IMG/VR virus record: IMGVR_UViG_2731957997_000008
DNA length: 6,409 nucleotides
Source of the DNA: a virus
Lineage: Duplodnaviria > Heunggongvirae > Uroviricota > Caudoviricetes
Strand: one strand, 5' to 3'
Shown here one piece after another: positions 1 to 755 of the stretch. The position numbers and the translations under genes are program-made. Each line of letters starts with the position of its first letter. Position 1 is the first letter of the stretch. The notes under the pieces were generated by a model, which ran no database searches, was not told the origin of the DNA, and saw only the letters and a program-made list of their open reading frames with translations.

Positions 1-60
1 GTTACGCACCACGCCTTCAGTAGCGGAGCAGGAAGGACATCTGATGGAAATGGAAGCCAC
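1..60 (-). CDS. insA: IS1 InsA (transposition regulator), 5' portion only; GTG start at 58-60 on the complement, gene runs off the window
   Basis: Minus-strand translation from GTG (complement of 58-60) gives VASISIRCPSCSATEGVVRN, close to canonical InsA N-terminus [20 protein letters not shown], including the CPSC zinc-finger motif. Confidence 0.7.
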   Translation of the reverse strand, partial: MASISIRCPSCSATEGVVRN

Positions 61-115
61 GCAAGCACCTTAAAATCACCATCATACACTAAATCAGTAA
101 GTTGGCAGCATTACC
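1..115 (-). mobile_element. IS1-family insertion sequence, terminal segment (IRL end at ~104-115; element continues beyond the left window edge)
   Basis: The reverse complement of 1-115 reads GGTAATGCTGCCAACTTACTGATTTAGTGTATGATGGTG...GTGGCTTCC...GGCGTGGTGCGTAAC, which matches my recollection of the IS1 left inverted repeat and insA 5' region (GGTGATGCTGCCAACTTACTGATTTAGTGTATGATGG...) at roughly 85-90% identity. Recognised from memory, not from a search. Confidence 0.8.
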
Positions 116-755
116 TGACCCGTTATCTAAAACAGAATTCAATGCATTAATGGAAAGTGAAAAAGGACAGAGCCAAAACTTGTGGAAATTTGCCGTTTAC
201 TCCGGGCTTCGTCACGGGGAACTGGCAGCTCTGGCGTGGGAGGATGTGGATTTCGAGAAGGGAATTGTGAATGTCAGAAGAAACCTGACGATACTTGATA
301 TGTTCGGTCCCCCAAAAACAAATGCCGGGATCCGGACGGTAGCATTACTGCAGCCGGCTCTTGAAGCACTGAAGGAGCAATACAAACTGACCGGGCATCA
401 TCGCAAAAGCGAAATCACTTTTTATCATCGGGAGTACGGCAGAACTGAAAAACAAAAACTGCATTTTGTTTTCATGCCCAGGGTGTGTAACGAAAAACAG
501 AAACCTTATTACTCGGTAAGCAGTTTGGGTACAAGATGGAATGCAGCAGTAAAACGTGCTGGTATTCGCCGCCGTAATCCGTACCATACGCGACATACTT
601 TTGCCTGCTGGCTGTTGACGGCAGGAGCGAACCCGGCATTTATAGCCAGCCAGATGGGGCATGAAACTGCGCAAATGGTGTATGAAATTTACGGTATGTG
701 GATTGATGACATGAACGACGAACAGATAGCCATGTTGAATGCGCGGTTATCGTAG
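116..755 (+). pseudogene. Tyrosine recombinase (phage integrase) C-terminal catalytic domain, 5'-truncated, apparently by the IS1 insertion
   Basis: The frame open to TAG at 753-755 encodes a box I-like GLRHGELAALAWEDVDF, a box II-like HTRHTFACWLL and a C-terminal GHETAQMVYEIYGMW with the candidate catalytic Tyr. The frame has stops at 42-44 and 90-92, no frame upstream encodes integrase-like sequence, and the IS1 terminus ends at 115. The 102 TTG start in the ORF track reads through IS1 end bases and is probably an artefact. Confidence 0.8.

Follow-up and report, generated by a model that had tools for sequence, protein, structure and literature searches.

An IS1-interrupted Rac-type integrase gene beside an unrecombined attP and the sitABCD operon in Shigella flexneri

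Background

Is the sitABCD operon of Shigella flexneri held in its place by a single broken integrase gene? The question is raised by a 6,409-nt stretch of DNA (hereafter referred to as the window) from the Caudoviricetes record IMGVR_UViG_2731957997_000008, in which the end of an insertion sequence abuts part of a phage integrase gene that is followed by sitABCD and tail-fibre genes. The initial annotation of this stretch proposed that IS1 had truncated the integrase of the adjacent sit island, leaving the island unable to excise and thereby fixed. The sit island of Shigella has been placed at aspS/yecN, with instability and rearrangements ascribed to homologous and not site-specific recombination (Fisher et al. 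2009, reviewed in PMC7545054). Its nature as prophage DNA riddled with insertion sequences, and the "grounding" of prophages by such elements, have already been described in PMC7545054 and PMC6379469, respectively. What we report here is accordingly known in kind: it is ordinary prophage decay in S. flexneri, and the locus has been present in public reference genomes since 2003. We consider it probable that the window carries the IS1-destroyed intR of a Rac-type lambdoid phage bearing sitABCD, which entered the chromosome outside attP x attB recombination and was then eroded by insertion sequences.

Results and discussion

An IS1 end joined to the catalytic part of intR

The first 115 bp of the window were initially described as an IS1 terminus with an inverted repeat and the start of insA on the complement, and both features hold: the stretch is identical (115/115) to other IS1 ends in the same genomes and its InsA start matches the InsA zinc ribbon (Table 1). 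A full element of about 768 bp, followed by the 5' part of the same integrase gene, had been predicted to the left, and both are present in the Shigella contigs, where a complete 768-bp IS1 (locus L003, 745-1512), of which the window keeps only the last 115 bp, is followed by intR nt 1-172. Its size, its 23-nt inverted repeats (20/23 complementary in the L003 copy), its genes insA (zinc ribbon and HTH) and insB' (DDE_Tnp_IS1; Pfam E=5.9e-20, 4.9e-30 and 2.6e-71 for the domains of the two genes) and the A6C frameshift motif (AAAAAAC at position 307) identify the element as a member of the IS1 family.

Integrase coding sequence begins at base 116, exactly at the IS boundary and near the box I region of the catalytic domain, as had been proposed. 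When 5,426 complete E. coli genomes were searched, the gene proved to be intR; window 114-856 is 99.6% identical to the annotated full-length gene (411 aa) of E. coli CFSAN029787 and others, and full-length copies in E. coli sit between xisR and ttcA. The remnant consists of the 3' 640 nt of intR, that is, the last 212 codons, with the natural stop at 753-755, and it matches Phage_integrase (PF00589; E=3.5e-24, model positions 6-165 of 172). Full-length IntR comprises an Arm-DNA-bind_2 domain (residues 5-69), a weak SAM-like core-binding match (82-138) and the catalytic domain (205-391). IS1 joins the gene at codon 199/200, within the linker that leads from the core-binding domain to the catalytic domain; R231, the first catalytic arginine, follows 32 residues later, and the catalytic residues R231, K266, R358, H381 and Y391 are all kept, as judged by alignment and motif. 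Because bases 1-115 are IS1, nothing upstream of the remnant in the window is able to encode the N-terminal domains of IntR, in agreement with the earlier observation that no upstream frame does so. An IS1 match is present, and no integrase N-terminus runs contiguously and in frame into the remnant, the two points on which the initial annotation had staked the truncation. With its arm- and core-binding domains no longer contiguous with the catalytic domain, intR here is a pseudogene and not a functional Rac-type integrase gene.

Table 1. Features assigned in the 6,409-nt window
Feature	Position	Strand	Basis or remark
IS1 outer end (IRL, insA-proximal, 115 bp of 768)	1..115	-	Pfam; identity to other IS1
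IS1 23-bp terminal inverted repeat	93-115		Part of the IS1 end at 1-115
InsA codons 1-20 (VASISIRCPSCSATEGVVRN)	60-1	-	Pfam Zn_ribbon_InsA, E=1.3e-8
insA promoter-like site, inward-facing	108-81	-	Only promoter-like site in the IS1 stretch
Mechanical 217-aa ORF, from a TTG inside the IS1 inverted repeat into the intR remnant	102..755	+	ORF list
intR 3' remnant, codons 200-411 plus stop, entire catalytic domain	116..755	+	Identity; Pfam
attP P arm (int side)	756..830	.	Same sequence as the int-side prophage arm in CFSAN029787, through base 856
Phage-borne ttcA 5' end, orphan 17-codon ORF MQENQQITKKEQYNLNK*	807..860	+	Three-way alignment
att core, 26 bp, AAGAAAGAACAATACAACCTGAACAA	831..856	.	Three-way alignment
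attP P' arm into the sitA upstream regulatory region	857..1186	.	Identical to the uspF-side arm beside sitA (L026)
sitABCD iron/manganese ABC transporter, phage cargo operon	1187..4636	+	ORFs; Pfam; RefSeq annotation of matching E. coli loci
Phage tail-fibre module	4837..6409	-	Pfam; annotation in L026; gene calls in Shigella loci
DUF4376 tail-fibre-assembly-like gene	4837-5460	-	Pfam DUF4376
Tail-fibre gene, 3' part	5349 to window end	-	Contains a run of 60 N

An intact attP separates intR from sitABCD

We compared the region between intR and sitA with the prophage of E. coli CFSAN029787 (EIEC), which is complete, about 48 kb long and integrated at ttcA. The window matches the int end of this prophage up to base 856 and its sit end from base 814 (exactly from 831), with 99.6% identity on each side, and the 26-bp core is the only stretch common to the int-ttcA (L001) and uspF-sitA (L026) junctions of this single lysogen. 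A left half that matches the int end and a right half that matches the sit end, with only the core in common, show that positions 756-1186 form an intact, unrecombined attP in which P arm, core and P' arm are contiguous. The annotation of ttcA in L001 begins at the base equivalent to the start of the orphan ORF at 807, which ends just past the core. On integration, this ORF would replace the native N-terminus of TtcA; four of its residues differ from that N-terminus, the change described by Liu et al. (PMC4632033). Exact TTTGCCCC octamers occur in the 6.4-kb window only at 764-771, 775-782 and 961-968 (motif scan), all within the attP arms, and a copy with one mismatch lies on the minus strand at 860-867; these copies are candidate arm-type IntR binding sites. 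The P' arm also varies in length at about 960-977, one Shigella-derived locus (L031) being some 12-13 bp longer there and E. coli about 30 bp longer; the BLAST alignments overlap at this point, and in L010, L012 and L014 an additional 30 or 41 bp separate int from sitA.

The same module is known from the Rac prophage of E. coli K-12, where intR-xisR adjoin a core in the 5' end of ttcA. The window resembles it in an integrase of 94-99.6% nucleotide identity, in xisR upstream, and in the 26-bp core and phage-borne ttcA 5' end. It differs in that IS1 divides intR, from which codons 58-198 are missing, and in that the att site is attP and not attL, with the host attB reported to be empty.

An unrecombined attP downstream of the int stop implies that the order int-attP-sitABCD-tail fibres is that of a free or circular phage genome. 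The CFSAN029787 prophage runs uspF, att, sitABCD, tail fibres, baseplate, head, terminase, lysis, Q, replication, immunity, Rha, recE, gam, xisR, intR, att and ttcA, so that in single lysogens int and sitABCD lie about 48 kb apart at opposite prophage ends. A 50.5-kb metagenomic viral contig (L033) carries an uninterrupted recE-recT-xis-intR(411 aa)-attP-sitABCD, which confirms int-attP-sit as the free-phage order. The window is 98.7-99.6% identical to the CFSAN029787 prophage and to IMG/VR UViG_3300039370_000009 on both sides of the att core, in the same order, whereas these two retain a 411-aa intR, an unbroken xisR and the full set of structural genes. The Shigella locus is colinear over 20 kb with a circular permutation of the EIEC prophage and is broken up by IS2, IS3-family and IS1 elements, with a 23-kb structural module deleted. 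With attP intact between int and sit, the junction is neither an island boundary nor a prophage end, and the initial placing of the integrase at the end of the sit island is contradicted; the two are adjacent because the phage genome stands in free-phage order. The annotation lesson is that an integrase beside cargo marks an island boundary only if the att site is recombined.

Route of entry into the chromosome

How an attP came to lie in the chromosome is best accounted for if the phage DNA arrived by some means that did not involve Int-mediated attP x attB recombination. Candidate routes would be homologous or IS-mediated recombination with resident prophage DNA, after which IS1, IS2, IS3-family and other elements may have eroded the locus. 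This would be in keeping with the "PAI sit" of Shigella and EIEC, in which, according to the account of Fisher et al. 2009 given in PMC7545054, sitABCD lies within IS-ridden lambdoid prophage remnants.

A tandem double lysogen at the Rac site could produce the same junction, with the truncated int as the left prophage end, sitABCD as the cargo of the right prophage and attP as the junction between them. Exactly this arrangement was found among the 5,426 genomes in E. coli H22 and six others, which are tandem Rac-type lysogens with the same int-attP-sit junction (in the H22 type ordered uspF, sit remnant, int remnant, attP, sitABCD), and Jnd12 and O157 strains have int-attP junctions with other cargo. 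In Shigella itself, the left of the early region holds, in order, IS fragments, a second DUF4376 tail-fibre-assembly copy, an ipaH effector gene and another IS1, and ipaH there occupies the cargo position equal to that of sitABCD on the right. However, no att core was found beside ipaH. The ttcA of S. flexneri 2457T, 301, 8401 and 2002017 is reported to hold no Rac-like prophage and to have the ancestral, unoccupied N-terminus (Liu et al., PMC4632033), and the summary in PMC7545054 maps the Shigella sit island to aspS/yecN. We therefore think a tandem lysogen unlikely and favour entry by a non-att route into resident prophage DNA, with the chromosomal site and the route resting on these two papers; an ancestral tandem state that was later rearranged may nevertheless be the source of the int-attP-sit junction.

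The ipaH gene itself encodes a 571-aa IpaH-type E3 ligase (LRR_TTSS and NEL); together with the neighbouring second DUF4376 copy (L039, 3885-4508 and 4687-6402) it lies about 13 kb left of the window; the IS1 beside it cuts off any att site before it.

IS1 insertion accompanied by deletion

The sequence beyond IS1 bears on how intR was lost. The part of intR found there is limited to nt 1-172, that is, 57 codons with a fragment of Arm-DNA-bind_2, and nt 597-1236 with the catalytic domain are kept on the window side. The stretch between them, from nt 173 to nt 594-596, is gone (422-424 bp; codons 58-198, including the core-binding domain). Next to the 5' fragment, xisR lacks its first 43 nt and persists as a 55-aa remnant that abuts another insertion sequence. 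The flanks of IS1 (...cagttccggtg / tgacccgtta...) contain no direct repeat abutting either end and no target-site duplication; the 8-9 bp duplication initially expected around 116-124 is absent because of the deletion within intR. Thus, the proposal that IS1 truncates the integrase survives in that a complete IS1 does interrupt the gene, and needs amending as to means: since the duplication is missing and so much of intR with it, the lesion appears to be an IS1 insertion with an IS1-associated deletion and not a simple insertion.

Adjacent deletion is classical IS1 behaviour. The locus resembles it in that IS1 is kept, the DNA beside one of its ends is lost and there is no target duplication; it differs in that the mechanism is here deduced from the end product. 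IS1 could have inserted into intR and then mediated an adjacent deletion, or two IS1 copies within intR could have recombined, and the end product would be compatible with insertion followed by deletion as well as with two insertions followed by recombination.

These observations weigh on the idea that IS1 simply inserted, with target-site duplication, into an integrase located at the end of the sit island, so that a formerly excisable island became fixed. It is true that IS1 interrupts the gene, that the 5' end of intR lies on its other side and that int and sit come from the same phage type. Against this stand the deletion in place of a duplication, the intact attP, which leaves no island end between int and sit, the empty ttcA of S. 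flexneri (PMC4632033), and a truncation of xisR and a deletion of morphogenesis genes that are independent of the IS1 event. We regard simple insertion as very unlikely.

Damage to intR by IS1 is not unusual. Three E. coli strains have IS1A-type copies that meet intR at nt 393 (MLI023K1, L027) or at about nt 660 (HS30-1, L028), or that lie inside xisR (LR-50, L029). The same IS1 end faces int in all three strains; the copies are only 91% identical to the Shigella IS1, and unrelated phage DNA lies on the other side each time, as nested IS1-associated deletions would leave it. These results suggest recurrent, independent IS1-associated deletions into the Rac int end in E. coli.

Reading of the open frame across the join

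The two terminal C bases of IS1 match intR nt 595-596 by chance, so that codon 199 (CCT) of IntR is rebuilt from the last two IS1 bases and the mechanical ORF extends back to the TTG at 102. An alternative annotated ORF of 201 aa starts at ATG 150, and gene callers give either 201 or 217 aa. Conceivably, the 217-aa IS1-int fusion might be expressed as a recombinase reduced to the catalytic domain, with retained or new activity: the frame is open from IS1 into int and its catalytic motifs are all intact. Yet a promoter scan detected no plus-strand promoter-like site in positions 1-160 that could serve the remnant, there is no obvious ribosome-binding site, and the product would lack the arm- and core-binding domains that recognition of att requires. 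In addition, the Shigella remnant differs from EIEC intR at three positions, two of which are non-synonymous, and this proportion of lineage-specific substitutions weakly suggests relaxed constraint. Expression as an active recombinase thus seems extremely improbable.

Distribution of the junctions

We also examined how widely the IS1/intR join is shared. A 41-mer spanning it is matched exactly in two species-representative genomes, of which one bears the label S. flexneri and the other E. coli ECMA0423. The 201-aa remnant protein occurs in 790 blocks of the assembly collection, with the same layout in 10/10 among the matches listed, which include S. flexneri 2a 2457T (AE014073.1). At both IS1 junctions, 22 Shigella loci drawn from about 18 independent assemblies, 2457T among them, agree in every base, and this identity points to the IS1::intR lesion as a single ancestral event, old and fixed. 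A chimeric join at a repeated IS1 has a negligible probability, for although Shigella genomes hold a great many IS1 copies and draft contigs often end at them, the same two junctions recur in these roughly 18 assemblies, which include many closed chromosomes from separate groups.

Stability of the sit segment

sitABCD does not owe its immobility to the loss of intR. No attL/attR pair appears to exist at this locus and ttcA is reported to be empty, so IntR would have nothing to excise, and the initial claim that integrase loss turned sitABCD into a fixed island fails on this point. Immobility by phage functions is moreover over-determined, with xisR truncated, the structural (morphogenesis) genes deleted and several insertion sequences present. 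Judging from the reading frames, the locus should yield no functional IntR or XisR, and the sit segment would be unable to move by site-specific recombination. In this respect the locus resembles "grounded" prophages, such as the stx prophage of S. dysenteriae discussed in PMC6379469, in which insertion sequences and rearrangement remove recombinase function and strand the cargo. It differs from them in apparently having no flanking attL/attR on which a lost recombinase could have acted, and the integrase lesion is therefore not the sole or decisive cause of the stranding.

Nor is the segment fixed in the wider sense originally proposed. In most S. flexneri strains a second IS1 (L018, 18424-19191) follows in direct orientation, 8,457 bp to the right of window base 115; ECMA0423 (L021) lacks it. 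The two direct copies differ by 1-2 nt and bracket int'-attP-sitABCD-tail fibres, making the segment prone to deletion; they are likely a ready substrate for its loss, in agreement with the instability of the sit island reported in PMC7545054. The stability of the sit segment would then be governed by recombination between insertion sequences, the second direct IS1 included. We also considered the two copies as the ends of an IS1 composite transposon and rejected this, as their outer flanks differ, there is no common target duplication and the right copy is missing from ECMA0423.

A chromosomal attP together with the reported empty attB in ttcA means that an active IntR would invert or delete the roughly half-megabase between them. 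It could be argued on this ground that selection favoured the knock-out of intR by IS1 and the truncation of xisR because the sit phage DNA could be retained only once they had occurred, and that they did not arise by neutral decay. We hold this to be improbable; if it were true, sit would be lost or moved as a unit delimited by the two direct IS1 copies.

These findings serve as a correction: no single broken integrase at the edge of an island keeps sitABCD in place in S. flexneri, and recombination between insertion sequences, not site-specific excision, is thus where the loss or movement of this virulence-associated transporter should be looked for. The understanding of IS1, of tyrosine integrases and of prophage decay is unaltered by the locus.

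The sit operon and its surroundings

The assignment of the sit operon includes a match of SitA to Pfam ZnuA (E=8.9e-86). Upstream of sitA lie an AT-rich Fur-box-like stretch, aatgataattattttcatt, at 1095-1113 and a perfect 9-bp palindrome, AAACATAGC-N4-GCTATGTTT, at 1133-1154, which the terminator scan calls as a hairpin; we take the two to resemble iron and manganese repressor sites. In the tail-fibre gene, a run of 60 N occupies 5538-5597, where only 26 bp (gctatatacgttccggtgggagtact) are present in genomes that match exactly on either side, so the N run does not keep length.

To the right of the window, most S. flexneri loci contain a 534-aa integrase with a faint DUF6538 match (L008, 1985-3589, and equivalents), which is bordered by insertion sequences as well as pRha and ORF6N genes and is missing from ECMA0423. 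Some strains additionally carry a group II intron reverse transcriptase (RVT_1 and GIIM; L015, 17065-18588; L023, 6724-8247; the right ends of L019 and L020), with the intron inserted in the IS beside xisR or further right.
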